Source: a virus (taxonomy: Duplodnaviria > Heunggongvirae > Uroviricota > Caudoviricetes). From it: a stretch of 34,123 nucleotides of DNA. Where the stretch lies: the IMG/VR virus record IMGVR_UViG_2541047783_000004; one strand, given 5' to 3'. Made by a program: the position numbers and the translations under genes. The first letter of the stretch is position 1. Each line of letters opens with the position of its first letter. This document shows positions 1 to 34,123 of this stretch, in pieces. The notes beneath the pieces are model-generated. The model was not told where the DNA came from. It did not search any database and saw nothing but the letters and a program-made list of their open reading frames with translations.

Positions 1-900
1 TTAACGCAACAATGGGCAATCTGGTGGTAATCGACAACGCAACGCCGCCGGAAGTATTTCAATATGAAAGTTTTGTCCGCTCAACGGTTCGCCATCAAGA
101 TTAAAAGTGATTTCGTGTGGGGCTTGTATATCAAACCACGACGAAGCGCCTTCGATAATATTCGGGTTATCTTCGTCAGATTTTAATGTTGATACGAGAG
201 CCGGAAGAATTTCATCGCCGGTAAAAATGCGCAGTTGCAGCAAGCCATCGTTAATTAACGCGTTCGGGCACAATTGCTGACCGCCACCGGCCTGACGCCC
301 GTTACCAATACCAATGACCAGGGCGTCACCTTGCCAGTGAAAGTTTTCACCGCGGATCTCACAACGGTCCGGTTGCAGAGTATCCATGCGCATTAAGCCA
401 TGAATGATGTAAGAGACGCCACCCAGCGCGGCTTTTAATTTTTCCGGCGTTTCTGTGGTAATACGCGTCCCAAATCCGCCTGTCGCCATATTAATAAAAC
501 AGGTTTGTTTGTTGACCTGCGCCATATCTATCGCAATGGCGTCACCGGCAATTGCCAGTTTCAGCGCCTTATCCAGTGCCTCAGGAATCCTTACACTGGT
601 GGCAAAATCATTGGCGGTTCCTAATGGCAAAATTCCTAGCGCGGGTATGTCATCCCCCTCACACTGAATCAACGCCGTAGAAACTTCATTAATGGTGCCA
701 TCGCCACCACCGGCAATCACCGTTGCGACGCCCAACTTCCGGGCCTCCTCTACATATCGTGCGGCATCGCCTTTCTCCCAGGTGACCCGCACATGGATCG
801 TCATTCCTTCCTCACGCAACAGCATAATTGCTTCGCGCAATGGTAAATTGTCAGTACTTTTGCCATTAAGAATCAGTAAGCTGGCGGGAAATTCTGCCAT
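1..900 (-). CDS. yegS: Lipid kinase YegS (diacylglycerol-kinase-like), 299 aa, complete
   Basis: ORF-track translation begins [18 protein letters not shown] and contains the GGDGT kinase motif; matches E. coli YegS as I recall it; start codon is the complement of 898..900. Confidence 0.9.
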
Positions 901-1314
901 GATCGTATGTGCCTTTATGATTGGTCTGTAGATAGTGTAGAGCAGAAAAGAAAAGGTGGAGTCAGAACAGGATGAAAGTCGGAGGATAAAAAATCAGTTC
1001 AAGTATAGAGGATTCAGTGGTTACCACCAGGAGCTTGCAATGGGGACAGTGAATGTTAACGGTAGCCATAGGTAAATTTCAAAAAAGAGCATATACCTAA
1101 TATTCAACTAAACAGTGGCATCTTCAATATACTATTAAAAATATATTAACCCCCCCATGGGGTTACCCGGAAGGGCCTCCGTGTATGTAATTCCTACTTA
1201 TGTAGGAAATGTTGTACAGAACATTTATTATAATCCTATTCAATTATAATAATCATGCCATTATTATATTTTAACACCAGAGCGTGTCGTTGGTATTTAA
1301 TGGGGGAAGGTAAG

Positions 1315-1632
1315 ATGAAAAAGATAGCTGCTATATCATTAATTAGTGTTTTTCTTATGTCTGGGTGTGCTGTACATAATGATGAGACAAGTATCGGTAA
1401 ATTTGGTCTTGCATATAAAAGTAATATTCAGCGTAAACTCGATAACCAATACTACACCGAAGCCGAAGCTTCTTTAGCCAGGGGCAGAATTTCTGGTGCA
1501 GAAAATATAGTAAAAAATGATGCAGCTCATTTCTGTGTTACTCAGGGCAAAAAAATGCAGATAGTTGACCTGAAGACAGAAGGTGCAGGATTACATGGCG
1601 TCGCTCGTCTGACATTCAAATGTGGAGAGTGA
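1315..1632 (+). CDS. yegR: YegR, small putative lipoprotein-like protein, 105 aa
   Basis: Internal ATG at 1315 preceded by a GGAAGG Shine-Dalgarno; translation MKKIAAISLISVFLMSGCAVHN has a signal/lipobox-like N-terminus and matches E. coli YegR; the track ORF from 1255 is a longer upstream extension. Confidence 0.8.
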   Translation: MKKIAAISLISVFLMSGCAVHNDETSIGKFGLAYKSNIQRKLDNQYYTEAEASLARGRISGAENIVKNDAAHFCVTQGKKMQIVDLKTEGAGLHGVARLTFKCGE

Positions 1633-1895: not shown

Positions 1896-2909
1896 TTACT
1901 CTACTGTGGACACTGTGTGGACACTCTCGGCTTCAGTACCACCTCTTAGCGGATTAAGAGAAATGGCGTCCTGAAGGTACTCTGGCGCAAAATGAGCGTA
2001 AACCATAGTTTGCTCAATCCGCGTGTGACCTAGTATCCGTTGTAGCGTGATAATACTTCCTCCATTAATCATGAAATGAGTGGCAAAGCTGTGCCTTAGT
2101 GCATGTGTGGCTTGCCCCGTTGGCAAATCCGGTTTTATTGCTTTCATTGTTCGTCTGAAGCGAGGGTAATCAGCATCAGGGAATAAAAAACCTCGTTTGT
2201 TATCCGCGATCATTTTGGCAACAGCCTCTGAGATCGGGACGGTGCGTGGTTTGTTTGTTTTCGTTTTAACAAACGTGACGCGGTTATGGATGATATTTTC
2301 TGCTTTCAAACGAGCTGCTTCTCCCCAACGTGCTCCTGTACTCAGGCAAAGAATCGCAATCTTTTTGTTGTCGCCGTCAAGTGCTGCAAGCAGTAAGGCA
2401 ATTTCTTCCTGTGTGAGATAGCCTGTTTCTGGTTTTTCCTCCTTAAGCCTCTTTGTCCCTCTGATAGGGTGCTCACCAAAGAATAACTCCGCTTCAATCA
2501 GGGCTGTAAACATGCCGCTAATACATGTTAAATCACGATTGATACTCGAAGGTTTAATACCCTGACTTCTTCGGGTGGCGCAGTACTGGCTGATAAGGGA
2601 TTTCGTGATTTGAAATGCGCATGGGTCATTCGTTATTTTTGTGAAGATTTCAATTTTTCCAAGATTAGATTTCCCATGCTCTTCGTGTTTACCCTTTAAA
2701 TCCCACCAGATCTGTGTCAGTTCCGACAGACGTCGTTTGTCTGTTGGTTTTGATAGCCATTCTTTATTGTGGTGGTTGTACAACGTGTATTTTTCGAAAG
2801 CGACAGCTTCGCTTTTCTTATCAAACTTCCTACGGATGCGTTTTCCGTTACGTCCAGTAGGGCGGATGTCCACTTCATATCGACCATCATCGAGTTTTTT
2901 GATTGCCAT
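1896..2909 (-). CDS. int: Tyrosine integrase, P2 Int-like, 337 aa
   Basis: Translation MAIKKLDDGRYEVDIRPTGRNGKRIRRKF...HALRHSFATHFMINGGSIITLQRILGHTRIEQTMVYAHF carries the tyrosine-recombinase R..H-x-x-R..Y catalytic region; matches P2 Int from memory. Confidence 0.93.
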   Translation of the reverse strand: MAIKKLDDGRYEVDIRPTGRNGKRIRRKFDKKSEAVAFEKYTLYNHHNKEWLSKPTDKRRLSELTQIWWDLKGKHEEHGKSNLGKIEIFTKITNDPCAFQITKSLISQYCATRRSQGIKPSSINRDLTCISGMFTALIEAELFFGEHPIRGTKRLKEEKPETGYLTQEEIALLLAALDGDNKKIAILCLSTGARWGEAARLKAENIIHNRVTFVKTKTNKPRTVPISEAVAKMIADNKRGFLFPDADYPRFRRTMKAIKPDLPTGQATHALRHSFATHFMINGGSIITLQRILGHTRIEQTMVYAHFAPEYLQDAISLNPLRGGTEAESVHTVSTVE

Positions 2910-5213: not shown

Positions 5214-5485
5214 GTATTCGTATTGAAATTGGCGAACGTTATGTCGTTACCAGTGACAGCTTTCAGTTTATTCTCCACGAGAAAAAGAGAGCGGAAAGCG
5301 GTAAAAACGCCGGTCAGGAATGGCTGGCGGTGGTTGGTTATTATCCGAAATTAAGCCAGCTCGTTTCCGGCCTGATGCATCACGATATTCTGACCGGAAG
5401 CGCAAAGTCTTTTGCTGATTTAAACGCGCAGGTTGAGCAACTCAGCAGGCGTTGTTCAGAGGCTTTTGGCTCATATGGCCGTTAA
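5210..5485 (+). CDS. Hypothetical early protein, P2 orf83-like, 91 aa
   Basis: ATG at 5210; conserved position immediately before A; its 3' end overlaps the A start. Confidence 0.6.
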   Translation: MSIRIEIGERYVVTSDSFQFILHEKKRAESGKNAGQEWLAVVGYYPKLSQLVSGLMHHDILTGSAKSFADLNAQVEQLSRRCSEAFGSYGR

Positions 5486-7742
5486 AGCCTCCGGGCGTTT
5501 TGTCCCTCCTTCAGCATTTGCTGCAGGCACCGGTAAGGCGTTTACCGGTGCTTATGCATGGAACGCGCCACGCGAGGCCGTCGGGCGCGAAAGACCCCTT
5601 ACACGTGACGAGATGCGTCAGGTGCAAGGTGTTTTATCCACGATTAACCGCCTGCCTTACTTTTTGCGCTCGCTGTTTACTTCACGCTATGACTACATCC
5701 GGCGCAATAAAAGCCCGGTACACGGGTTTTATTTCCTCACATCCACTTTTCAGCGTCGTTTATGGCCGCGCATTGAGCGTGTGAATCAGCGCCATGAAAT
5801 GAACACCGACGCGTCGTTACTGTTTCTGGCAGAGCGTGACCACTATGCGCGCCTGCCGGGAATGAATGACAAGGAGCTGAAAAAGTTTGCTGCCCGTATC
5901 TCATCGCAGCTTTTCATGATGTATGAGGAACTCAGCGATGCCTGGGTGGATGCGCATGGCGAAAAAGAATCGCTGTTTACGGATGAGGCGCAGGCTCACC
6001 TCTATGGTCATGTTGCTGGCGCTGCACGTGCTTTCAATATTTCCCCTCTCTACTGGAAAAAATACCGTAAAGGGCAGATGACCACGAGGCAGGCATATTC
6101 TGCCATTGCCCGTCTGTTTAACGATGAGTGGTGGACTCATCAGCTTAAAGGCCAGCGTATGCGCTGGCATGAAGCGTTACTGATAGCTGTCGGGGAGGTC
6201 AATAAAGACCGTTCTCCTTATGCCAGTAAACACGCCATTCGTGATGTGCGTGCGCGCCGCCAGGCAAATCTGGAATTTCTTAAATCGTGTGACCTTGAAA
6301 ACAGGGAAACCGGCGAGCGCATCGACCTTATCAGTAAGGTGATGGGCAGTATTTCTAATCCTGAAATTCGCCGGATGGAGCTGATGAACACCATTGCCGG
6401 TATTGAGCGTTACGCCGCCGCAGAGGGTGATGTGGGGATGTTTATCACGCTGACCGCGCCGTCAAAGTATCACCCGACTCGTCAGGTCAGAAAAGGCGAA
6501 AGTAAAACCGTTCAGCTTAATCACGGCTGGAACGATGAGGCATTTAATCCAAAGGATGCGCAGCGTTATCTCTGCCGTATCTGGAGCCTGATGCGCACGG
6601 CATTCAAGGATAATGATTTACAGGTCTACGGTTTGCGAGTCGTCGAGCCACACCACGACGGAACGCCGCACTGGCATATGATGCTTTTTTGTAATCCACG
6701 CCAGCGTAACCAGATTATCGAAATCATGCGTCGCTATGCGCTCAAAGAGGATGGCGACGAAAGAGGAGCCGCGCGAAACCGTTTTCAGGCAAAACATCTT
6801 AACCGGGGCGGTGCTGCGGGGTATATCGCGAAATACATCTCAAAAAACATCGATGGCTATGCACTGGATGGTCAGCTCGATAACGATACCGGCAGGCCGC
6901 TGAAAGATACTGCTGCGGCTGTTACCGCATGGGCGTCAACGTGGCGCATCCCGCAATTTAAAACGGTTGGCCTGCCGACAATGGGGGCTTACCGTGAACT
7001 ACGCAAATTGCCTCGCGGCGTCAGCATTGCTGATGAGTTTGACGAACGCGTTGAGGCTGCACGTGCCGCCGCAGACAGTGGTGATTTTGCGTTGTATATC
7101 AGCGCGCAGGGTGGGGCAAATGTTCCGCGTGATTGCCAGACTGTCAGAGTCGCCCGTAGCCCGTCGGATGACGTTAACGAGTACGAGGAAGAAGTCGGGA
7201 GAGTGGTCGGCATTTACGCGCCGCATCTCGGCGCGCGTCATATTCATATCACCAGAACGACGGACTGGCGCATTGTGCCGAAAGTTCCGGTCGTTGAGCC
7301 TTTGACTTTAAAAAGCGGCATCGCCGCGCCTCGGAGTCCTGTCAATAACTGTGGAAAGTTCACCGGCAGTGATACTTCGTTAACGGCTCCCACACCTTCT
7401 GAACATGCCGCAGCCGTGCTTAATCTGGTCGATGACGGTGTTATCGAATGGAATGACCCGGATGTCGTGAGGGCGCTCAGGGGGGCATTAAAACACGAAC
7501 TGAGAACACCAAATCGTCAGCAAAGAAACGGAAGCCCGTTAAAACCGCATGAAATTGCGCCTTCGGCCAGACTGACCCGGTCGGAACGAATGCAAATCCC
7601 CCGTATCCGCGTTGACCTTGGTCAGAACGGTATCAGGCCTCAGCGATGGGAGCTTGAGGCGCTGGCGCGTGGGGCAACCGTAAATTATGAGGGGGTAAAC
7701 TTCAGGTATCCGGTAAATGATGAGTGGCCGGGATTTAATTAA
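5475..7742 (+). CDS. A: Rolling-circle replication initiator endonuclease A (gpA), 755 aa
   Basis: Internal ATG at 5475; translation MAVKASGRFVPPSAFAAGTGK...VEPHHDGTPHWHMMLF...GYIAKYISKNIDGY matches P2 gpA, including the HUH-type and active-site tyrosine region. Confidence 0.92.
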   Translation: MAVKASGRFVPPSAFAAGTGKAFTGAYAWNAPREAVGRERPLTRDEMRQVQGVLSTINRLPYFLRSLFTSRYDYIRRNKSPVHGFYFLTSTFQRRLWPRIERVNQRHEMNTDASLLFLAERDHYARLPGMNDKELKKFAARISSQLFMMYEELSDAWVDAHGEKESLFTDEAQAHLYGHVAGAARAFNISPLYWKKYRKGQMTTRQAYSAIARLFNDEWWTHQLKGQRMRWHEALLIAVGEVNKDRSPYASKHAIRDVRARRQANLEFLKSCDLENRETGERIDLISKVMGSISNPEIRRMELMNTIAGIERYAAAEGDVGMFITLTAPSKYHPTRQVRKGESKTVQLNHGWNDEAFNPKDAQRYLCRIWSLMRTAFKDNDLQVYGLRVVEPHHDGTPHWHMMLFCNPRQRNQIIEIMRRYALKEDGDERGAARNRFQAKHLNRGGAAGYIAKYISKNIDGYALDGQLDNDTGRPLKDTAAAVTAWASTWRIPQFKTVGLPTMGAYRELRKLPRGVSIADEFDERVEAARAAADSGDFALYISAQGGANVPRDCQTVRVARSPSDDVNEYEEEVGRVVGIYAPHLGARHIHITRTTDWRIVPKVPVVEPLTLKSGIAAPRSPVNNCGKFTGSDTSLTAPTPSEHAAAVLNLVDDGVIEWNDPDVVRALRGALKHELRTPNRQQRNGSPLKPHEIAPSARLTRSERMQIPRIRVDLGQNGIRPQRWELEALARGATVNYEGVNFRYPVNDEWPGFN

Positions 7743-7885
7743 TGCTTTGATTTTTTAGTTAGGCTGCTCTAGAATCCACGCCAGTTACCGCTTGGGGTAT
7801 CCTTGCATTGCTCTTGGTATTAGCTTTATACAAAGGGTGTAAAGGCTGCTATTGGCAACAATAGTGCTGGCATGGAGATAATCTC

Positions 7886-7981
7886 ATGTTAAAGTTAGTG
7901 AAAGTACGTCAGTACAATCGCTATCGTTTCGGTAAGTGGGAGACGGTGTGTGAACACCGTCGTTCTTACCCAACCCGATGA
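7886..7981 (+). CDS. Candidate micro-ORF, 31 aa (MLKLVKVRQYNRYRFGKWETVCEHRRSYPTR), convergent with the hotspot gene
   Basis: ATG at 7886 with GGAGA Shine-Dalgarno 7 nt upstream; basic, aromatic-rich peptide; stop lies 9 nt from the stop of the minus-strand 739-aa gene; below the track's size cutoff, so support is weak. Confidence 0.25.
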   Translation: MLKLVKVRQYNRYRFGKWETVCEHRRSYPTR

Positions 7982-7989
7982 TATGCGGC

Positions 7990-10209
7990 CTAAGCGGTAA
8001 CGGTTTCCTCTTCCTCTTCGTCCATCATTTTCAAATAATGTTTTTCATCACCAGTCATACGAAAAATGGTTTTTAGTTGCTCCATATATTTCTCTGGAGA
8101 TATATCTCCCATGTCTGTGATATTAACTGCATCTGAATGGGAACCTCTATTAATGTATCTATAAAATGCTCTAAAATCATTATTCTTATCATCGCTAGCA
8201 AGTTTATTTAACTCTGTCTGTAATGCATCCGTTCTATGAACAAATGCGAAGTAGTATTCCAGTATATTTCTCATGATGTTAGGTATTATGACTTTATTTA
8301 CCCTTCCATCCTTCGCATCTTTTAATACTTGCCATAGGGACTGGTATTCATTCTGAATGCTCTTTTTCTCTATTTCTGTAATTATGCTATATTCATTTTT
8401 TGTTACTCGTCCAAGATAATAATCACGCTTGAATGTTCTATCTTCTTTGCTTCTAGGAGCTAATTTGATAAGTTCATGAAAGAAATAAAGGTTATGTGTG
8501 AGTATTAATGTTTTCTTTACTGCTTTGTTATTGTTGATTATTTCATGGTGAATTATTGAAGCAATATCGTACACATAATTTTGAGAGAGGCTGGATATTG
8601 GATCATCAATAACGATAAATACATCTCGCATATCCGTATCATTCTTATCTGTCTTACCTTTACAGCATTCCAGAAAGTAGAGAAAGGTAATTAAAGTTTT
8701 TTCACCCTCGCTAAGAGATCTGTATACATCTTTATCTGTTGTGTTTTCAGAACGTGATATAATATATTTATCATTGCTCTCAGTGTGTTTTTTTATGCTA
8801 AAACCATAAATTCCTAATAATTTTAGACGTTGATTTATAGAATCTATGGTTGCATCAATGTTAGATATTTGATCGCGTAGCTCTTTGATCTTTTTGCTAT
8901 TGTTATCTCCTTGTTCTTTTATGGTATTTAATTCAAGTTGATATTGTTCATAAATGATTTTATAGTCATTCTCATATTTTGAGAAAGCTTCAAACTCAGC
9001 GTTGCATAATTCTCTTATTGCTCCCCATATTTTGTAACGTATAGACTTTTCACTATCCTTAAATTGTTTGACTTTAATATTTATTTCTTTAATTCTATTG
9101 TTGTACTCTGCTATATTATCAACTACCTTTGCTTCAAGGTCGCTATTGGATTCCAAAATAATAGATATAGATGGGTTATTGATTTTATCTAACATCAATT
9201 TTAAGTTTTTGTTTGCTATTTCCTCTAATAACGCTATATGAGATGATGTTATATCTTTTTCTTTTGAGGTGATTAATTCACAAGATGAAATCTCTTGTTT
9301 TATTTTTCTTAAATTATCTATGGTAGCGGATTCATAAGACGATCTGATAATGCGTATTTGGTCAACTTTCTTGGAGTAGCTATCATCAAAGATAGATTCA
9401 ATTGCTTCTAAAAATTTGTCTTTAATAGTGTCTTCTTGGCAGAATGGGCAACATGTGCCATTTAAATATAATTCCTTCCCTTTTTTCACCCAGTCAAGGT
9501 TTTGAAGTTGTTTAATTGTTTCTGACAAATAGCTATTACTTGAGTCTATAATCGGAGTGGATAAAGATTCTTTATCTTTTTCTGAAATGATATATTTTTC
9601 TAAAGGTGTAATTGATGCAGTGAATTTATCTTTGTTCTTTAAAAGAATACTATATTCTTGAGCAAGTGACTCGATGTTAACGTCAGTGGTTTGAGGGGCT
9701 TTTTTAACTTGCTCATAAAATGATCTCTTGCTTCCTAACTGACCTTTCATCAAGTTCTTTAAGTCAGATGATCTAAAAGGTTCTGCTTTATTCCATATTA
9801 AATCAATATATTCATTTTCTTTATTGTTTTTATCTTTAATTAAACGCTCAATAACGTTTTTTTTATCTTTGTATTTTGTAAGTAGGTCTTGTCTTATAGC
9901 TTCTTTTTCCAACAATTCTTTTTCAATGTCAGCATTTTCCTTACTTAAAGTGAATACTCCTTTTTGCTCTTTTGCATTATAAAAATTATCCTCAACAAAC
10001 TTAGTATTATAAACCAATAGGCGAAAAGTATCTATGAAAGGACATTCGCATTCTTTGTAGTCCGTGTTATTTGGATTATAGAAATAATTAGATATGGTTG
10101 ATTTTCCACAACCGTTGTGACCATAAAGTATATTAATTTTTTTTGAGAGATTAAGAGTCGTGAAGCTATCTTTCTTATAGCTGGTTATATTCTTTAATTT
10201 AAGTTCCAT
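7990..10209 (-). CDS. Hotspot cargo: 739-aa ABC-type ATPase with a CxxC-containing central insert and a putative C-terminal anticodon-nuclease domain (RloC/PrrC-like, AAA_13-type); candidate anti-phage abortive-infection protein
   Basis: Walker A GHNGCGKST near the N-terminus; a long K/E/N/I-rich insert containing NGTCCPFCQ (CxxC); signature-like LSEGEKTLITFLYFL; Walker B VFIVIDDPISS; H-loop-like LILTHN; C-terminal MRNILE...INRGSH giving R-x3-E and a downstream His; very AT-rich relative to the flanking phage genes; occupies the P2 tin/old position. Confidence 0.55.
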   Translation of the reverse strand: MELKLKNITSYKKDSFTTLNLSKKINILYGHNGCGKSTISNYFYNPNNTDYKECECPFIDTFRLLVYNTKFVEDNFYNAKEQKGVFTLSKENADIEKELLEKEAIRQDLLTKYKDKKNVIERLIKDKNNKENEYIDLIWNKAEPFRSSDLKNLMKGQLGSKRSFYEQVKKAPQTTDVNIESLAQEYSILLKNKDKFTASITPLEKYIISEKDKESLSTPIIDSSNSYLSETIKQLQNLDWVKKGKELYLNGTCCPFCQEDTIKDKFLEAIESIFDDSYSKKVDQIRIIRSSYESATIDNLRKIKQEISSCELITSKEKDITSSHIALLEEIANKNLKLMLDKINNPSISIILESNSDLEAKVVDNIAEYNNRIKEINIKVKQFKDSEKSIRYKIWGAIRELCNAEFEAFSKYENDYKIIYEQYQLELNTIKEQGDNNSKKIKELRDQISNIDATIDSINQRLKLLGIYGFSIKKHTESNDKYIISRSENTTDKDVYRSLSEGEKTLITFLYFLECCKGKTDKNDTDMRDVFIVIDDPISSLSQNYVYDIASIIHHEIINNNKAVKKTLILTHNLYFFHELIKLAPRSKEDRTFKRDYYLGRVTKNEYSIITEIEKKSIQNEYQSLWQVLKDAKDGRVNKVIIPNIMRNILEYYFAFVHRTDALQTELNKLASDDKNNDFRAFYRYINRGSHSDAVNITDMGDISPEKYMEQLKTIFRMTGDEKHYLKMMDEEEEETVTA

Positions 10210-10538
10210 TTAAAACCTCATCATTGCCAATGATATTGTATAAATATTTAAGCTGTTTAACATGAATTATTTTGCTAAACGATAAAGATCTACCTCAGAA
10301 GTTTACTTTGTTCAAGCAAAATCTTTTGTTCTAAGAGATATAAAAATTTTTATTAATAGTTTGATTTTTGTTCATGGGATTTCCTTTTTTTATGTTTTTA
10401 CAAAGTAATAACTATGCATGTATCAGGTGCATGGTTTTGCATGTGTCAAAGTTATGCGTCCTCATTGCTTTACGTCACAGCTAGCGAGGATTCAACGTAC
10501 TCATGCAACTGCATTAAAACCGCCCCATGAAGCGGGCG

Positions 10539-10557
10539 GGCGAGGCGGGGAAAGCAC
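10539..10557. other. cos cohesive-end sequence GGCGAGGCGGGGAAAGCAC (P2/186-type 19-nt cos)
   Basis: Exact 19-mer as I recall it for P2 cos, about 170 bp outside the Q gene end, the expected position. Confidence 0.6.
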
Positions 10558-10725: not shown

Positions 10726-11760
10726 TCAGCCGTTGTCAGTGTCCAGTGAGTAGTTTTTAAAGCGGATGACCTCCTGACCGAGCCAGCCGTTTATCTCGCG
10801 GATCCTGTCCTGTAGCGGGATAAGCTCATTGCGGACAAAGACCTTTGCCACTTTCTCAATATCTCCCAGTGACCCGACGTTCTCCGGCTTGCCGCCCATC
10901 AACTGAAAGGGGATGCGGTGCGCGTCCAGCAGGTCAGCGGCGCTGGCTTTTTTGATATTAAAAAAATCGTCCTTCGTTGCCACTTCACTGAGCGGGATAA
11001 TTTTAATGCCGTCAGCTTTCCCCTGCGGGGCATAGAGAAACAGATTTTTAAAGTTGTTGCGGCCTTTCGACTTAACCATGTTTTCGCGAAGCATTTCGAT
11101 ATCGTTGCGATCCTGCACGGCATCGGTGACGTACATGATGTATCCGGCATGAGCGCCATTTTCGTAATACTTTCGGCGGAACAGCGTGGCCGACTCATTC
11201 AGCCAGGCAGAATTAAGGGCGCTGAGATATTCCGGCAGGCCGTACAACTCCTGATTAATATCCGGCTCCAGCAGGTGAAACACGGAGCCGGGCGTGAAGG
11301 CTGTCGGCTCGTTGAAGGACGGCACCCACCAGTAAACATCCTCCTCCACGCCACGGCGGGTATATTTTGCCGGTGAGGTTTCCAGTCTGATGACCTTACC
11401 GGTGGTGCTGTAACGCTTTTCCAGAAACGCATTACCGAAAACCAGAAAATCCAGCACAAAGCGGCTGAAATCCTGCTGGGAAAGCCACGGATGCGGGATA
11501 AATGTCGAGGCCAGAATATTGCGTTTAACGTAAATCGGTGAGCTGTGATGCACGGCAGCACGCAGGCTTTTTGCCAGACCGGTAAAGCTGACCGGTGGCT
11601 CATACCATCTGCCGTTACTGATGCACTCGACGTAATCCAGAATGTCACGGCGGTCGAGTACCGGCACCGGCTCACCAAAGGTGAATGCCTCCATTTTCGG
11701 TGCGCTGGGGGTCATTTTTTTTGCCGCAGGTTGCGGTGTTTTCCCTTTTTTCTTGCTCAT
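10726..11760 (-). CDS. Q: Portal protein Q, 344 aa
   Basis: Translation MSKKKGKTPQPAAKKMTPSAPKMEAFTFGEPVPVLDRRDILDY... matches P2 gpQ. Confidence 0.93.
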   Translation of the reverse strand: MSKKKGKTPQPAAKKMTPSAPKMEAFTFGEPVPVLDRRDILDYVECISNGRWYEPPVSFTGLAKSLRAAVHHSSPIYVKRNILASTFIPHPWLSQQDFSRFVLDFLVFGNAFLEKRYSTTGKVIRLETSPAKYTRRGVEEDVYWWVPSFNEPTAFTPGSVFHLLEPDINQELYGLPEYLSALNSAWLNESATLFRRKYYENGAHAGYIMYVTDAVQDRNDIEMLRENMVKSKGRNNFKNLFLYAPQGKADGIKIIPLSEVATKDDFFNIKKASAADLLDAHRIPFQLMGGKPENVGSLGDIEKVAKVFVRNELIPLQDRIREINGWLGQEVIRFKNYSLDTDNG

Positions 11761-22469: not shown

Positions 22470-23665
22470 CAGTGAAATACTACGCCATTCTGACTAATCA
22501 GGGCGCAGCACGGCTGGCTAACGCGACGATGCTCGGCAGTAAGCTGAATCTGACGCAAATGGCCGTTGGTGATGCGAATGGTGTCTTGCCGACACCAGAC
22601 CCGGCACAGACAAAACTGATTAACCAGAAACGCATCGCGCCGCTGAATCTTCTGAGTGTTGACCCGAACAACCAGAGCCAGATTATTGCGGAGCAAATCA
22701 TCCCTGAGAACGAGGGCGGATTCTGGATCCGTGAGATTGGGCTTTATGATGATGAAGGCGTACTCATTGCGGTGGCGAACTGCCCGGAAACGTACAAACC
22801 GCAGTTGCAGGAAGGCAGCGGTCGTACCCAGACTATCCGCATGATTCTGGTTGTCACGAATACCGAAGCCATCACGCTGAAAATCGACCCGTCGGTGGTA
22901 CTGGCGACCCGTAAATACGTGGATGATGAAGTCCTGGAATTAAAGCTGTATGTGGATGACCAGATGAGAAACCACATTGCCGCACAGGATCCTCATACCC
23001 AGTATGCACAGAAACATAATCCGACATTTACCGGAGAACCAAAAGCGCCGACGCCTGCCGCAGGAAATAACACCACGCGGATTGCGACCACTGCGTTTGT
23101 ACAGGCCGCTATCACCGCTCTGATTAACGGTGCGCCTGCCACGCTGGATACACTGAAAGAAATTGCCGCAGCCATTAACAATGACCCGAAATTCAGCACC
23201 ACCATTAACAATGCGCTGTCAGGTAAGCAGCCACTGGATGAGACGCTGACTCATTTGAGTGGGAAGGATGTTGCCGGTCTTCTCGCATACCTTGGTTTGG
23301 GAGAAGCGGCAAAACGGGGTGTGGGAACAGGGGAAAATCAGATACCGGACATGGCTTCATTTAGTGGGGTGAGGGATTATTACGGAAAACAACTTTTGCC
23401 AGGAGGGTTGATACTTCAGTGGCTGACGATTCCATCAAGTGCAGCAGCTAAAGCTGTAACACTGAATAATGGTAATTATCAGCTGTCAGGCTATAAATGG
23501 CCCCAGTCATTTGGTGTCCTGTTTGCTGTGTTTGCTACAAAAGTTTCTGGCTCGACTAACGAAGCATATGCAATCTCAGTTAATCGTCACTCTACCGATG
23601 TAATTGTCACTTGGAATGCCCGTAAGGCTGATGATGTCCACATTTTAGGAATTGGGAAATTATGA
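22466..23665 (+). CDS. H: Tail fibre protein H, 399 aa; constant N-terminal part fused to the currently expressed variable C-terminal cassette
   Basis: N-terminal 250 aa or so resemble P2 gpH ([22 protein letters not shown]...EGSGR); the gene is crossed by the left inversion site at 23280..23305; ATGA overlap with I. Confidence 0.85.
23280..23305. repeat. Left crossover site of the invertible tail-fibre segment (gix/hix-like, 26 bp) inside H
   Basis: TTCTCGCATACC-TT-GGTTTGGGAGAA is an inverted copy of the right site at 25153..25178 (15-bp perfect core TTGGTTTGGGAGAAG / CTTCTCCCAAACCAA); half-sites resemble the Gin/Hin consensus TTATCnAAACC. Confidence 0.7.
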
Positions 23666-24081
23666 AAATGAAATGGTCCCCATCTGTTCAGGGATTTTTC
23701 TCTGAAAATAACAGCGATATTCCCGATGATGCTTTCGATATTGAAGATGCTCTTTATTATGAACTTATGAATGGTCAGAGTACGGGGAAAATTATTATCA
23801 ATAACCCGGATAACTACCCTGTACTTACTGAATATCCAGCGAAGACACAGGAACAGGAAATAGCTGAAGCGGAGGGAATGAAAAGTATACTTATTGAACA
23901 GGCCAACGAATACATGAACAGTAAGCAATGGCCTGGTAAAGCCGCTATTGGTCGTCTGAAAGGTGAGGAACTGGCGCAATATAATTTGTGGCTGGATTAT
24001 CTGGACGCACTGGAACTGGTTGATACCTCCAGTGCGCCAGATATTGAATGGCCTACGCCTCCGGCAGTTCAGGCCAGATGA
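23662..24081 (+). CDS. Tail fibre assembly chaperone (gpG/Tfa-like), 139 aa, in the expressed orientation
   Basis: Immediately follows H with an ATGA overlap; C-terminal ...[23 protein letters not shown] is echoed in the inverted paralogue ([25 protein letters not shown]). Confidence 0.8.
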
Positions 24082-24655
24082 CATCCGGCGCGGTGCTGGT
24101 ATCTGTTGCCGTCACCGAGTCAATGTAATCCAGCACAGCGTTAAGTCGGGTGTTTTCTGTCTGCGTCAGCTTCCGCCCGGCCTGTAATTTCAGTTGAATC
24201 AGACTGATGGAAGCCATTGCAGCATCAATCAGCGACTGGCGCTGTGCTTCTGCCGCTTCTACTGCGGCGCTATGCTGTGCCTCAGTATTGGTCACCCATT
24301 TCTCACCATCCCATTTATCGTATGGCGTTAACGGTGCGAGAGTGGTTGTATTTTCGGGATAGTCGCCTGGTGCTGTGATTTCTTTGGCATCTCCCGTTTC
24401 GGTGTTGTAGACAATTTCACCGCGATGGTCTGGCACATATTCCCATGAGTTAAAATCTGCAGAACGGCAGATTGCATAACCAGCTTTATGTGTAACTGGT
24501 GCATCTAAACAAGAACATGCCGGGATACCGACGCCAACCGCAAGATATTCAGTTGATGAGGAAATATATTCCCGCGTTTCACCATCATAATTATAAATGG
24601 TAATGTCTCCCGCTTTTATGGCAATGAGTTCGTTATTTAATACGGCTTTATTCAT
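24053..24655 (-). CDS. Alternative tail fibre assembly chaperone (Tfa'), 200 aa, inverted orientation
   Basis: Convergent with and overlapping the 3' end of the plus-strand tfa; shares its C-terminal motif; follows the Sv' cassette on the minus strand with a TGATG overlap. Confidence 0.75.
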   Translation of the reverse strand: MNKAVLNNELIAIKAGDITIYNYDGETREYISSSTEYLAVGVGIPACSCLDAPVTHKAGYAICRSADFNSWEYVPDHRGEIVYNTETGDAKEITAPGDYPENTTTLAPLTPYDKWDGEKWVTNTEAQHSAAVEAAEAQRQSLIDAAMASISLIQLKLQAGRKLTQTENTRLNAVLDYIDSVTATDTSTAPDVIWPELPEA

Positions 24656-25165
24656 CAGGCAGCCCTCACGATATAATTAAAGGCAATGTTACGAGGACGG
24701 TTTTCGTTTGCAGTTGGAACAATTCTTGAAGCATCAAGGCCAATCACTTTTGGGTAAACAGCGCCATCTGTTCTTTCTGTCACCATACTTCTGATTAAGG
24801 AGAAATAACTATTGTTCGTTGAGGGGTTCAAAGGCACCACTGCCCCCTTAAACGAGCCTACTGATTCCCATATTGAATAATTTTCGGTGTTTACAGTCTT
24901 GAACTCACCATAGATATTACGTATGGCATCGCCCTGAGCTGATAATATTGCCCTCCCCGTATCCATACCACGTCCGTCATCCCAGCCACGAATAAACTCA
25001 CCACGTAAATCAGGCAATTTATTTGTCGGGTAAGCCTTTGCCAGTTCCGGGTATTCTTCAGCAGAAAAAGCTGCTCCGTTGCATTTTAGCCAGCCTGTTG
25101 GCGGAGTGGCTGAGGGCCACGGAACAGGCACACCAACGGGTAATGCCGAACCTTCTCCCAAACCA
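24655..25165 (-). CDS. Silent alternative tail-fibre C-terminal cassette (Sv'), about 170 codons, with no start of its own in this orientation
   Basis: The minus-strand frame reads ...FLNVGLGEGSALPVGVPVPWP..., continuing in frame through the right crossover site, where GLGE matches the LAYLGLGE junction in H; inversion would fuse it to the H constant region. Confidence 0.65.
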
Positions 25166-25178
25166 ACGTTTAAGAAAA
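25153..25178. repeat. Right crossover site of the invertible segment (gix/hix-like, 26 bp)
   Basis: TTCTCCCAAACC-AA-CGTTTAAGAAAA; inverted repeat of 23280..23305; lies just upstream of the invertase gene. Confidence 0.7.
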
Positions 25179-25233
25179 TGCAGAGATTATGGCTAACTGG
25201 CATCATCTCCGGTTTTTATTCAGGGGGATGCTC

Positions 25234-25827
25234 ATGCTTATTGGCTATGTACGCGTGTCAACAAATGACCAGAACACGGAATTGCAGCGTAATGCGCTGG
25301 AGTGCGCAGGATGTGAGCTGATTTTTGAGGACAAAATCAGCGGCACGAAGTCCGACAGGCCGGGGCTGAAAAAACTGCTCAGAACATTATCGGAAGGTGA
25401 CACTCTGGTTGTCTGGAAGCTGGACAGGCTGGGGCGTAGTATGCGGCATCTGGTCATTCTGGTTGAGGAACTGCGCGAACGCGGCGTTAATTTTCGCAGC
25501 CTGACGGATGCTATTGATACCAGCACGCCGATGGGGCGTTTTTTCTTTCATGTGATGGGTGCCCTGGCTGAAATGGAGCGAGAACTCATTGTCGAGCGGA
25601 CACGCGCCGGACTGGAAGCGGCCAGAGCCAAAGGTCGTATTGGTGGCAGACGACCGAAACTCACCGCGAGTGAGTGGGAGCAGGCCGGGCGTTTGCTGGC
25701 TGCAGGGGAGTCACGTCAACGCGTGGCACTGATTTTTGATATTGGTCTGTCCACGCTCTATAAAAAATTTCCCTCATCAGCGACAAAGAATAAATTGTGT
25801 CATCCCTTAGCCAACCGGGACAAATAG
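25234..25827 (+). CDS. Site-specific DNA invertase, serine recombinase of the Gin/Hin/Cin/Pin family, 197 aa
   Basis: Internal ATG at 25234 with AGGGGG Shine-Dalgarno; translation MLIGYVRVSTNDQNTELQRNAL...LVVWKLDRLGRSMRHL...GRIGGRRPKL...LSTLYKK has the catalytic Ser in YVRVSTNDQ and a C-terminal helix-turn-helix. Confidence 0.92.
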   Translation: MLIGYVRVSTNDQNTELQRNALECAGCELIFEDKISGTKSDRPGLKKLLRTLSEGDTLVVWKLDRLGRSMRHLVILVEELRERGVNFRSLTDAIDTSTPMGRFFFHVMGALAEMERELIVERTRAGLEAARAKGRIGGRRPKLTASEWEQAGRLLAAGESRQRVALIFDIGLSTLYKKFPSSATKNKLCHPLANRDK

Positions 25828-32761: not shown

Positions 32762-34123
32762 TCACTTACCGTGGGGGTTACGCGTGGTTTCCCCGGAGAA
32801 ATTACGCATCAGGAGCGCGTAATTTAGCTCAAGATCCTGCGGGACCGGGAGCCACACAGTATAACCATCGCCTGGTGCGACCGGCATAGCTTCACCTTTG
32901 GCGTTTTCCATGTGCTCAAGGGTAAAGTTAATGTTGCCTTGCGGCGTCATCAGCTCAAGGCTGTCACCAACGGAGAATTTATTTTTCACCGCTACCGCCG
33001 CGAGGTCGCCCTTGCGCTCACCGGTAAACTCACCAACAAACTGCTGGCGGTCAGAAACTGAATAACCGTATTCGTAGTTCTGATAATCGTCGTGAGTATG
33101 ACGACGCAGGAAACCTTCGGTATAGCCACGATGCGCCAGACCTTCCAGAGTTTCCAGCAGGCTGGTATCGAATGGTTTTCCCGCAGCTGCGTCATCGATA
33201 GCTTTACGGTAAACCTGCGCGGTGCGTGCGCAATAGTAGAAAGATTTGGTACGGCCTTCGATTTTCAGCGAATGCACTCCCATTTTGGTCAGGCGTTCTA
33301 CATGGGCGATGGCGCGCAGATCTTTCGAGTTCATGATGTAAGTGCCGTGCTCATCTTCAAACGCGGTCATATACTCGCCCGGACGCTGGGCCTCTTCGAT
33401 CATAAACACTTTGTCGGTTGGTGCGCCGATACCCAGCGTCGGCTCAACATTTTGCACCGGAATCGGCTCGTACTTGTGTACGATGTTGCCAACGTCATCT
33501 TCTTTCCCTTCCTGGACGTTGTATTCCCAGCGGCAGGCGTTGGTGCAGGTGCCCTGGTTCGGGTCGCGCTTGTTGATATAGCCAGAGAGCAGGCAGCGAC
33601 CGGAGTAGGCCATGCACAGCGCGCCGTGAACGAAGATCTCTACCTCCATATCCGGCACCTGATTGCGGATCTCTTCAATCTCTTCCAGCGACAGCTCGCG
33701 AGAGAGGATCACGCGGGTCAGGCCCATTTGCTGCCAGAATTTCACCGTCGCCCAGTTCACGGCGTTAGCCTGTACCGAGAGATGGATCGGCATTTCAGGG
33801 AAGTGCTCACGCACCAGCATAATCAGCCCTGGATCGGACATAATCAGCGCATCCGGCCCCATTTCCACCACCGGTTTCAGGTCACGGATAAAGGTTTTCA
33901 GCTTGGCGTTGTGCGGTGCAATGTTGACCACGACATAAAACTTTTTCCCCAGCGCGTGGGCTTCATTGATGCCGAGCTGGAGATTTTCGTGGTTAAATTC
34001 GTTGTTGCGCACACGCAGGGAGTAACGCGGCTGGCCCGCATAAACAGCATCTGCGCCATAAGCGAAAGCGTAACGCATATTTTTCAGCGTTCCCGCCGGG
34101 GAAAGGAGTTCCGGTTTAAACAT
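32762..34123 (-). CDS. yegQ: Peptidase U32-family protein YegQ (TrhP, tRNA hydroxylation), 453 aa, complete
   Basis: Translation MFKPELLSPAGTLKNMRYAFAYGADAVYAGQPRYSLRVRNNEFNHENL... matches E. coli YegQ; start codon is the complement of 34121..34123. Confidence 0.9.
   Translation of the reverse strand: MFKPELLSPAGTLKNMRYAFAYGADAVYAGQPRYSLRVRNNEFNHENLQLGINEAHALGKKFYVVVNIAPHNAKLKTFIRDLKPVVEMGPDALIMSDPGLIMLVREHFPEMPIHLSVQANAVNWATVKFWQQMGLTRVILSRELSLEEIEEIRNQVPDMEVEIFVHGALCMAYSGRCLLSGYINKRDPNQGTCTNACRWEYNVQEGKEDDVGNIVHKYEPIPVQNVEPTLGIGAPTDKVFMIEEAQRPGEYMTAFEDEHGTYIMNSKDLRAIAHVERLTKMGVHSLKIEGRTKSFYYCARTAQVYRKAIDDAAAGKPFDTSLLETLEGLAHRGYTEGFLRRHTHDDYQNYEYGYSVSDRQQFVGEFTGERKGDLAAVAVKNKFSVGDSLELMTPQGNINFTLEHMENAKGEAMPVAPGDGYTVWLPVPQDLELNYALLMRNFSGETTRNPHGK

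Follow-up and report, generated by a model that had tools for sequence, protein, structure and literature searches.

A predicted RloC-family anticodon nuclease as single-gene cargo in the cos-proximal hotspot of an Escherichia coli P2-like prophage

ATPase-gated RNases that attack tRNA are encoded by bacteria and by the phages they carry, and two described families bear most directly on the gene reported here. PrrC, the product of the E. coli prr locus, is an ABC-type NTPase fused to a C-terminal nuclease with an Arg-Glu-His triad, and it brings about abortive infection by tRNA cleavage. It uses GTP and dTTP, nicks tRNA-Lys rather than excising a base, has no coiled-coil/hook insert, and is always encoded within a type Ic hsd operon, which keeps it silent. 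The RloC family was founded by Davidov and Kaufmann (2008) on a set of shared features: PrrC-type ABC motifs, a helical insert with CX2C in its central loop, an Arg-X3-Glu-X36-52-His triad in which Ser often precedes the His, a size range of 658-897 aa, and rare linkage (8/73) to type I or type III restriction-modification (R-M) loci. The characterised members, from G. kaustophilus (GkaRloC, 804 aa) and A. baylyi ADP1 (826 aa), are chromosomal or transposon-borne and usually have no linked R-M system. Wobble excision, a response to Zn2+, and activation by DNA ends have been demonstrated only for these enzymes; their nuclease activity is lost in triad mutants and heightened in hook mutants, is inhibited by Zn2+, and is activated by ATP hydrolysis together with linear DNA.

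Other systems share parts of this plan. Rad50/SbcC and the SMC-like defence ATPases (Lamassu LmuB, Septu PtuA, and PARIS AriA) also have a split ABC head with a helical insert, and Rad50 carries a Cys-x-x-Cys hook. They lack a fused C-terminal RNase and act with the separate partners Mre11/SbcD, LmuA, PtuB, and AriB. In P2 itself, the reference cargo between replication gene A and portal gene Q consists of old and tin, which have a presumed role in phage exclusion. A 2026 preprint describes Old, too, as an ABC-ATPase-gated abortive tRNase; its nuclease is a TOPRIM domain, it has no CxxC hook, and it belongs to a different family with an unrelated effector domain.

The A-to-Q slot is a documented and experimentally validated P2 defence hotspot. 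Rousset et al. (2022; Table S5B) list as hotspot system #5 a single-gene AAA_13 system labeled "RloC-like", with 420 occurrences in the gpA-gpQ interval of E. coli P2-like prophages; it lies outside the set that they cloned and tested. Genes of this type have been on record in the slot since 2008, when the E. coli APEC O1 orthologue entered the founding list of RloC proteins. A survey of HEPN domains (Anantharaman et al. [quoted passage not shown] All three elements were on record before this analysis: the family since 2008, its occurrence in prophages since 2013, and its position in this hotspot since 2022.

We analyzed a 34,123-nucleotide stretch of viral DNA (IMG/VR record IMGVR_UViG_2541047783_000004; hereafter the window) that holds an E. 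coli P2-like prophage. An RloC-family gene is the sole cargo between replication gene A and cos/portal gene Q (Table 1). Its reading frame opens with ATG, closes with TAG, and encodes 739 aa on the minus strand, as the first-pass annotation of the window had proposed. The AT-rich island around it contains no second plausible gene, partner, or antitoxin, only short chance ORFs, and no hsd genes were found within the window. Between the gene and portal gene Q lies GGCGAGGCGGGGAAAGCAC, which we take to be the P2 cos cohesive-end sequence. The allele of this window occurs in 32 of 5426 complete E. coli genomes, and a homologue occupies the same slot in the sequenced Enterobacter phage ENT4. In several complete genomes, the homologue is annotated in two pieces, as "AAA family ATPase (x2)".

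Table 1. Features of the RloC-family gene and its prophage surroundings (positions in the window).
Feature	Coordinates	Strand	Evidence
P2 gpA-type replication endonuclease, left hotspot border	5433..7742	+	PGAP name "replication endonuclease" in identical E. coli loci; 73% identity to phage ENT4 homologue
RloC-family gene, 739 aa	7990..10209	-	ORF; Pfam AAA_13 and PADLOC PDC-S06; 65% identity to APEC O1 orthologue #51
Predicted anticodon-nuclease (PrrC/RloC-type, HEPN-related) domain, residues 585-739	7993..8457	-	Two short strands, then seven helices; AlphaFold2 domain model pLDDT 78
Predicted catalytic-triad His and preceding Ser, S690-H691	8137..8142	-	Invariant, 54 homologues
Predicted catalytic-triad Arg and Glu, R647-N-I-L-E651	8257..8271	-	R647, E651 invariant, 54 homologues
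H-loop / switch LILTHN, residues 568-573	8491..8508	-	H572 invariant, 54 homologues; kept in 68/68 intact distant loci
Walker B and D-loop VFIVIDDPISSL, residues 530-541	8587..8622	-	D535, D536, P537, S540 invariant, 54 homologues
ABC signature LSEGE, residues 499-503	8701..8715	-	L499, S500, E501, G502, E503 invariant, 54 homologues
Helical insert splitting ATPase, residues about 93-448	8866..9933	-	AlphaFold2 secondary structure, mean pLDDT 82.7
CPFC, candidate zinc hook, residues 254-257	9439..9450	-	C254, P255, F256, C257 invariant
Walker A / P-loop GHNGCGKST, residues 30-38	10096..10122	-	G30, N32, G33, G35, K36, T38 invariant, 54 homologues
AT-rich leader upstream of RloC-family gene	10210..10450	-	GC 0.20-0.36 per 50-nt bin
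P2-type cos cohesive-end sequence GGCGAGGCGGGGAAAGCAC	10539..10557	+	Exact 19-nt match, single; 0 expected by chance
P2 gpQ portal protein, right hotspot border	10726..11760	-	PGAP name "phage portal protein"; 80% identity to phage ENT4 homologue

The composition of the gene sets it apart from its surroundings. Computed GC is 0.303 in the ORF (0.272 at third positions), against 0.531 elsewhere in the window and 0.552 in the prophage core, and the AT-rich island extends about 240 bp upstream of the ORF, to roughly position 10450. The earlier by-eye estimate of an AT-rich insertion was correct in direction, although its figure of less than 30% GC was slightly too low for a value of about 30%. 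Likewise, the reported codon bias is borne out for AAA, AAT, and ATT and not for TTT, which lies outside the top 12; the most used codons are AAA, GAA, GAT, AAT, ATA, and ATT, with 35 of the rare ATA codon. A Shine-Dalgarno GAGG (10216-10219) and a weak sigma-70-like site (10259..10230) can be read in the leader upstream of the gene; a promoter and terminator scan of the cargo region returned counts at or below the shuffled expectation.

The predicted protein is built around an ABC ATPase head of the Rad50/SMC type, interrupted by a helical insert (about 355 residues) with an invariant CPFC. All seven motifs quoted in the first-pass annotation were located, among them LSEGEKTLITFLYFL (residues 499-513) in the signature region, VFIVIDDPISS (residues 530-540), NGTCCPFCQ (residues 250-258), MRNILE (residues 646-651), and INRGSH (residues 686-691), and their key residues are conserved. 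Across 54 homologues, a set that reaches down to 25% identity, K36, C254, C257, S500, E503, D535, D536, H572, R647, E651, S690, and H691 are invariant. Among 68 intact relatives from distant species of many phyla, 67-68 retain the same key motif residues; Walker A K36, and the pair C254 and C257, are present in all 68.

The AlphaFold2 model refines the earlier description of a roughly 450-residue insert laid out like a zinc hook on a coiled coil. Walker A and the signature are separated by 461 residues, which include parts of both ATPase lobes. The middle part of the insert consists of several helices and is bordered by two long ones (93-141 and 403-448), and CPFC sits in a loop between helices 240-249 and 264-273, where local pLDDT is only 52-66. 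In the model, the insert is built of several helices and not of one long coiled coil. The best Foldseek matches in the PDB are Rad50 and SMC heads with coiled coil. A single-sequence search of the PDB returned no match, and a profile search returned weak P-loop/coiled-coil matches to SMC3 and Rad50, with no PrrC or RloC structure among the PDB entries. Sequence likeness to Rad50/SbcC, LmuB, PtuA, and AriA is confined to the P-loop region.

The C-terminal domain, modelled as all-alpha in line with expectation for a PrrC/RloC nuclease domain, bears the Arg-x3-Glu...Ser-His triad common to PrrC and RloC, in the layout R647-x3-E651-x39-H691 with S690 before the His; the Glu-to-His spacing is 39 here and 34-39 across the family. 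Ser directly precedes the triad His in 54 of 54 homologues. The suggestion of an Arg-x3-Glu followed by a downstream His stands, with R647, E651, and H691 all invariant; the Arg inside INRGSH (R688) is variable and forms no part of the conserved set. The equivalents of R647 and E651 are R320 and E324 in PrrC and R692 and E696 in GkaRloC, and Ala mutants at these positions lose nuclease activity there; the GkaRloC triad is completed by H737, the counterpart of H691. An R684-x6-H691 arrangement of the HEPN Rx4-6H form is present in this protein and its closer relatives, with Tyr or Ser at residue 684 in a distant subclade; the Arg that is invariant throughout the family, R647, lies 43 residues upstream of H691. 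Residues 585-739 alone align with the last part of Pfam AAA_13 (profile positions 588-712 of 713, E=1.3e-19). Foldseek with the model of this domain (pLDDT 78) gave no match at E<1.

Profile searches, which the first-pass annotation had proposed, place the whole protein. Pfam AAA_13 (PF13166) covers residues 16-716 (E=2e-102; 344.6 bits against a gathering threshold of 36 bits; profile 9-712 of 713), and the PADLOC PDC-S06 model PDLC04886 matches over the full length (E=4e-253; 840 bits; profile 4-725 of 727). The PADLOC PrrC model (372 positions) aligns to residues 456-734 only (E=2.5e-14), and an NCBIfam scan of the 739-aa protein gave no meaningful match. The APEC O1 RloC orthologue, the ENT4 protein, and one hsd-embedded relative also match PDLC04886. 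PADLOC matches to the Old, PARIS, Septu, and Lamassu ATPases are weak and limited to the N-terminal P-loop, and these candidates were rejected. The lack of an Mre11/SbcD partner and the presence of a fused C-terminal triad domain led us to reject Rad50/SbcC. PrrC proper was rejected because the protein has an insert and its gene is not part of an hsd operon; the neighbors of the gene are phage genes A and Q.

Sequence comparison confirms that the 739-aa protein is a member of the known RloC family, and the RloC/PrrC-like assignment proposed from motif layout is upheld. It displays every sequence feature by which Davidov and Kaufmann (2008) defined the family: PrrC-type ABC motifs (residues 30-38, 499-503, 530-541, and H572), a length within 658-897 aa, the triad, and a CX2C in the insert, where C254/C257 correspond to C288/C291 in the central loop of GkaRloC. 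R-M linkage is also rare, with no hsd genes in the window and about 10% of the relatives' loci linked to type I systems (approximately 7 of 70 distant loci linked to hsd), which agrees with the 8/73 of Davidov and Kaufmann. No neighbor gene is conserved across these 70 distant loci, in agreement with the proposal that the gene stands alone. Compared by published motifs, the characterised RloCs share the ABC head, the hook cysteines, and the triad; they are 65-87 residues longer and distant in sequence.

The nearest listed family member is the APEC O1 orthologue (YP_852004; now APECO1_RS04465, WP_000423308.1), with 65% full-length identity. It agrees with entry #51 in Table S1 of Davidov and Kaufmann in strain, length, and flanking genes. 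This 738-aa protein has the same motifs and the same best PADLOC model, and it is encoded in the same slot, from the P2 replication endonuclease to the portal gene. The two are separate alleles that have diverged by 35%; of 5426 complete E. coli genomes, 44 have the APEC O1 allele and 32 the allele of this window. The gene is located at 925.9 kb of the APEC O1 genome, via the P0028 allele; from this position, it is probably gi 117623091 / APECO1_4465, the ABC-HEPN prototype of Anantharaman et al. (2013). The representative of Rousset system #5 is 48% identical to our protein over the 399 residues available. The protein belongs to a clade of about 720-750 aa, often phage-borne, that corresponds to PDLC04886 and to APEC O1 entry #51, and probably to the "APECO1_4465" group of the HEPN survey. 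In a 2025 preprint, an E. coli PDC-S06 protein is among those without DefenseFinder annotation; this, together with the separate grouping in the 2013 survey, suggests that the clade is a divergent branch. We found no work in the literature on phage restriction or tRNA cleavage by any member of this clade.

In our view, the gene product is likely to be a stand-alone anticodon nuclease of the RloC family, and the gene an accessory element in the defence hotspot that P2-like prophages have next to cos. The defence role is inferred from context, that is, from a slot documented as a hotspot for such cargo, as the first-pass annotation had recognized. By analogy with GkaRloC and A. baylyi RloC, the nuclease would be kept silent in the uninfected lysogen by its ATPase and zinc-bound hook. 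Infection would be signalled at the level of DNA, for instance by double-strand ends or DNA damage, and this signal would trigger one round of ATP binding and hydrolysis and turn the nuclease on. Once active, the enzyme would cleave the anticodon loops of tRNAs with no need for a metal cofactor and might remove the wobble nucleotide, which would leave phage tRNA repair enzymes unable to mend the damage. The resulting halt in translation would abort the infection and protect sister lysogens and, in turn, the prophage.

The same architecture could also house another chemistry or target: an RNase, still gated by the ATPase, that cuts once in the manner of PrrC or acts on other RNAs such as mRNA or rRNA, with no wobble excision. 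Wobble excision has been demonstrated for the 804-aa G. kaustophilus enzyme only, this protein belongs to a shorter clade with its own entry in the HEPN survey, the PADLOC PrrC model matches its C-terminal half, and other HEPN RNases, such as RnlA and LsoA, cut mRNA (Anantharaman et al. 2013). We nevertheless regard this reading as unlikely: both the triad and the distances within it agree with how RloC was defined, the RloC-type AAA_13 model aligns with the protein over its whole length, and both characterised relatives of the nuclease domain, PrrC and RloC, are anticodon nucleases. Less probable still is a PrrC-style second line of defence, in which a host type I R-M enzyme silences the nuclease in trans and a phage anti-restriction protein, rather than DNA ends, releases it. 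Davidov and Kaufmann (2008) raised trans-silencing and remarked that APEC O1 "encodes type I EcoK like"; about 10% of relatives lie inside hsdM-hsdS-X-hsdR operons (e.g., loci L045, L059, and L080), and PARIS, a neighboring hotspot system, senses an anti-restriction protein. However, the window has no hsd genes, about 90% of loci have no conserved neighbor, phages carry the gene between hosts with differing R-M systems, and GkaRloC is controlled from within, through its hook and its DNA-dependent ATPase.

We give the least credence to a function that is not primarily anti-phage, be it a selfish toxin or addiction module, an SMC/Rad50-like DNA-handling helper, or a silenced or decaying passenger. 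AT-rich genes gained by horizontal transfer frequently undergo silencing, the rare ATA codons and the split annotation of the homologue in several genomes also speak for this group of readings, and direct anti-phage activity has never been demonstrated for RloC in the literature. Against this, the catalytic and ATPase residues are strictly conserved over thousands of cluster representatives from many phyla, which points to an active enzyme maintained by selection; experiments have validated the slot as a defence hotspot; and the Mre11/SbcD-type partner that a Rad50/SbcC role would need is missing. The preferred reading, a stand-alone RloC-family anticodon nuclease, leaves room for specialization. 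Tentatively, and with low confidence, the short clade may differ from the 804-826-aa RloCs in trigger or target, and its E. coli-native member might provide the first direct demonstration of anti-phage activity for an RloC. The enzyme might, for example, sense the ends of incoming or replicating phage DNA while tolerating the cos ends of its own P2 host phage, or the short clade might cut another set of tRNAs.

At the level of kind, the locus adds little that is new; its value lies in naming and in access. For a gene that PGAP names only "AAA family ATPase", the annotation "RloC-family anticodon nuclease" is safe, and the PADLOC candidate PDC-S06 (PDLC04886) proves equivalent to members of the original RloC orthologue list, which removes a redundancy in naming. 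The anti-phage role of RloC apparently still rests on inference, and the literature that could be searched yielded no experiment in which an RloC was challenged with phage; this E. coli-native, phage-borne allele offers a convenient subject for phage challenge.

The cargo gene of this P2-like prophage is a new allele of the known RloC family, and its slot is one already catalogued for that family. The prophage insertion has a yegS-like lipid kinase gene on one side and a U32 peptidase gene on the other. The first-pass annotation had placed a single minus-strand gene of 739 aa between replication gene A and cos/Q, and the ORF we find there bears this out. Between cargo and Q lies an exact copy of a 19-nt sequence, which we take to be the P2 cohesive end; examination of the ORFs of the AT-rich island revealed no second plausible gene.

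Features of the prophage and its host flanks
Feature	Coordinates	Strand	Remark
yegS-like lipid kinase gene	1-900		left of prophage
Orphan 125-aa ORF	1255-1632	+	between yegS-like gene and integrase
Prophage integrase	1896-2909	-	
P2 gpA-type replication endonuclease gene (A)	5433-7742		one flank of cargo
Cargo ORF, 739 aa	7990-10209	-	single ORF in slot
19-nt sequence	10539-10557		between cargo and Q
Portal gene Q	10726-11760		other flank of cargo
Tail-fibre assembly gene	23662-24081	+	part of apparent switch
Assembly protein, opposite second set	24053-24655	-	part of apparent switch
Collar-domain fibre tip, opposite second set	24655-25206	-	part of apparent switch
Resolvase/HTH_7 serine invertase	25189-25827	+	part of apparent switch
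U32 peptidase gene	32762-34123		right of prophage

The composition of the cargo ORF contrasts strongly with that of the prophage core (GC 0.303, and 0.272 at third codon positions, vs 0.552), as the annotation had proposed, although the value is about 30% rather than strictly below it and the prevailing codons do not include TTT. The AT-rich island extends beyond the start codon by ~240 bp on the upstream side, after which GC returns to ~0.6. The gene contains 35 rare Ile ATA codons among 739, and its leader is 20-36% GC; both features would suit a gene that is weakly expressed or under H-NS-type silencing, in line with the weak expression predicted for rloC genes when the family was first described (Davidov & Kaufmann 2008).

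Profile matches span the whole cargo protein. Pfam AAA_13 aligns to residues 16-716 (profile positions 9-712 of 713, E=2e-102), and the last 155 residues alone still align to its end (E=1.3e-19), so AAA_13 models the full-length architecture and not the ATPase alone. The PADLOC PDC-S06 model matches full length (E=4e-253), and the PADLOC PrrC model matches part of the C-terminal half (residues 456-734, E=2.5e-14). IMG names exactly the same protein "wobble nucleotide-excising tRNase"; an NCBIfam profile scan returned nothing, which explains the bare PGAP name "AAA family ATPase". All seven motifs quoted in the first-pass annotation occur in the order and positions given there; one of them, INRGSH, is present, but its Arg is not conserved. 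An alignment of 54 homologues, with identity down to 25%, reveals invariant residues in Walker A (G30, N32, G33, G35, K36, T38), the hook (C254-P-F-C257), the signature (L499-S-E-G-E503), Walker B (D535-D-P537) with H572, and the C-terminal domain (R647, E651, S690, H691). Of 68 intact relatives, taken from species-representative genomes across many phyla, 67-68 retain the same ATPase, hook, and C-terminal residues. The family is large, with 2,846 representatives of 50%-identity clusters recovered by an alignment-profile search at E<=1e-30; among the top 150, almost every protein is 710-790 aa long and aligns from end to end.

RloC proteins were defined as distant PrrC homologues that share the ABC motifs of PrrC, carry a helical insert whose central loop contains CX2C and a C-proximal Arg-X3-Glu-X36-52-His, often with Ser before the His, and measure 658-897 aa; linkage to restriction-modification (R-M) is rare, at 8/73 (Davidov & Kaufmann 2008). 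The cargo protein displays every one of these sequence features: R647-x3-E651-x39-S690-H691, a CPFC hook, and a length of 739 aa, with Ser preceding the triad His in 54/54 homologues. Entry #51 of Supplementary Table S1 in that paper is a 738-aa protein of Escherichia coli APEC O1 (YP_852004), flanked by "Phage replication initiation, Capsid". In APEC O1 we find a 738-aa "AAA family ATPase" at 925,932-928,148, between phage portal and replication endonuclease genes; its full-length alignment to the cargo protein shows 65% identity and one gap. Its genome position fits APECO1_4465, the type of an ABC-HEPN group described in a 2013 HEPN survey as "frequently found in integrated prophages." The gpA-gpQ hotspot has been catalogued in E. 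coli, where a single AAA_13 gene, "RloC-like," ranked fifth among systems by frequency, at 420 occurrences; its representative was not among the systems cloned (Rousset et al. 2022). The part of that sequence given in the text is 48% identical to the cargo protein. Together, the AAA_13, PDC-S06, and PrrC matches, the agreement with the RloC definition, and the identity to orthologue #51 support the proposed RloC/PrrC-like ATPase-nuclease in the P2 hotspot.

In an AlphaFold2 model derived from the 54 aligned sequences (mean pLDDT 82.7), an N-terminal ABC lobe is followed by a long helix (93-141), a multi-helix region, a returning long helix (403-448), a C-terminal ABC lobe, and an all-alpha C-terminal domain. 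CPFC falls within the multi-helix region, on a loop flanked by helices 240-249 and 264-273, where local pLDDT is only 52-66. The top Foldseek matches in the PDB are Rad50 (Mre11-Rad50 complexes) and SMC heads that include coiled coil, followed by defence ATPases including retron-associated PtuA, Lamassu LmuB, and AriA; sequence and profile searches of the PDB found no PrrC or RloC structure.

The window's locus occurs identically in 32 of 5,426 complete E. coli genomes, and the APEC O1 allele in 44. The sequenced Enterobacter phage ENT4 carries an equally AT-rich homologue (64% identity) in the same slot; its portal and A proteins are 80% and 73% identical to those of the window. The cargo is less conserved than its flanks, yet both copies retain ~30% GC, which reflects either long residence without drift towards the phage's composition or repeated swaps of divergent alleles. 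The ENT4 A homologue starts at the residue aligned with Met15 (MAVKASG...) of the window's A ORF, so the TTG start at 5433 is probably too far upstream and the start lies at ~5475. Several complete E. coli genomes (records H11, H48, H49, H65, H66) have the homologous gene annotated as two "AAA family ATPase" pieces, and database clusters include many truncated members; this suggests that either the gene, which is potentially toxic, has repeatedly suffered frameshifts or pseudogenisation, or AT-rich homopolymers were misassembled.

When all flanking ORFs from 70 distant loci were clustered, no neighbour was common to more than 4, which argues that the RloC-family protein works without a dedicated partner. 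Type I R-M linkage is seen at ~10% of the distant loci, which reproduces the "restriction-linked ORF" minority described in 2008: relatives lie inside hsdM-hsdS-X-hsdR operons at L045, L059, and L080, and partly at L061, and follow an HsdR gene at L022, L047, and L050. At L061, a Candidatus Gracilibacteria MAG, the tblastn match (6001-8166) is nearly full length, yet table 11 gives 25 residues before a stop. Gracilibacteria read UGA as Gly, and the early stop likely reflects this alternative code rather than a pseudogene.

Elsewhere in the prophage, the second P2 hotspot (Z/fun position, 23587-25827) lies between the tail-fibre genes H/G and FI and is occupied by what appears to be an invertible tail-fibre switch. 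GC drops there to 0.41-0.43. The orphan ORF matches no Pfam model, and GC is low around it (0.37 at 1001-1500); the ORF may represent either a small moron at the end of the prophage or what is left of an attachment site.

The cargo protein combines the domain architecture with conserved ATPase, hook, and triad residues and a stand-alone organisation, and its gene resides in a validated P2 defence hotspot. The characterised RloC proteins come from G. kaustophilus and A. baylyi; they are distant relatives that exceed the cargo protein in length by 65-87 residues. In papers on these proteins, any triad mutation abolishes anticodon nuclease and toxicity; mutating the hook Cys residues raises activity ~20-fold, and inhibition by Zn2+ is seen with the wild type only. 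The nuclease is activated by ATP hydrolysis with linear DNA and, in vivo, by a DNA-break inducer, and the wobble nucleotide is excised via two successive cuts. By analogy, the ATPase and hook of the cargo protein would keep its nuclease inactive in the lysogen until a DNA-level cue of infection turned it on; tRNA cleavage would then stop translation and abort the infection. We found no phage-challenge test of any RloC in the published literature.

PADLOC model PDLC04886 (PDC-S06, "phage defence candidate") matches the cargo protein (7990-10209), the APEC O1 RloC orthologue (L086 4501-6717), the hsd-embedded relative (L045 6001-8151), and the ENT4 protein (L083 4001-6229). This candidate corresponds to members of the RloC list of 2008, a naming redundancy across defence databases; a 2025 preprint counts an E. 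coli PDC-S06 protein among those without DefenseFinder annotation. A phage-borne RloC native to E. coli would provide a convenient subject for a direct test of anti-phage function.
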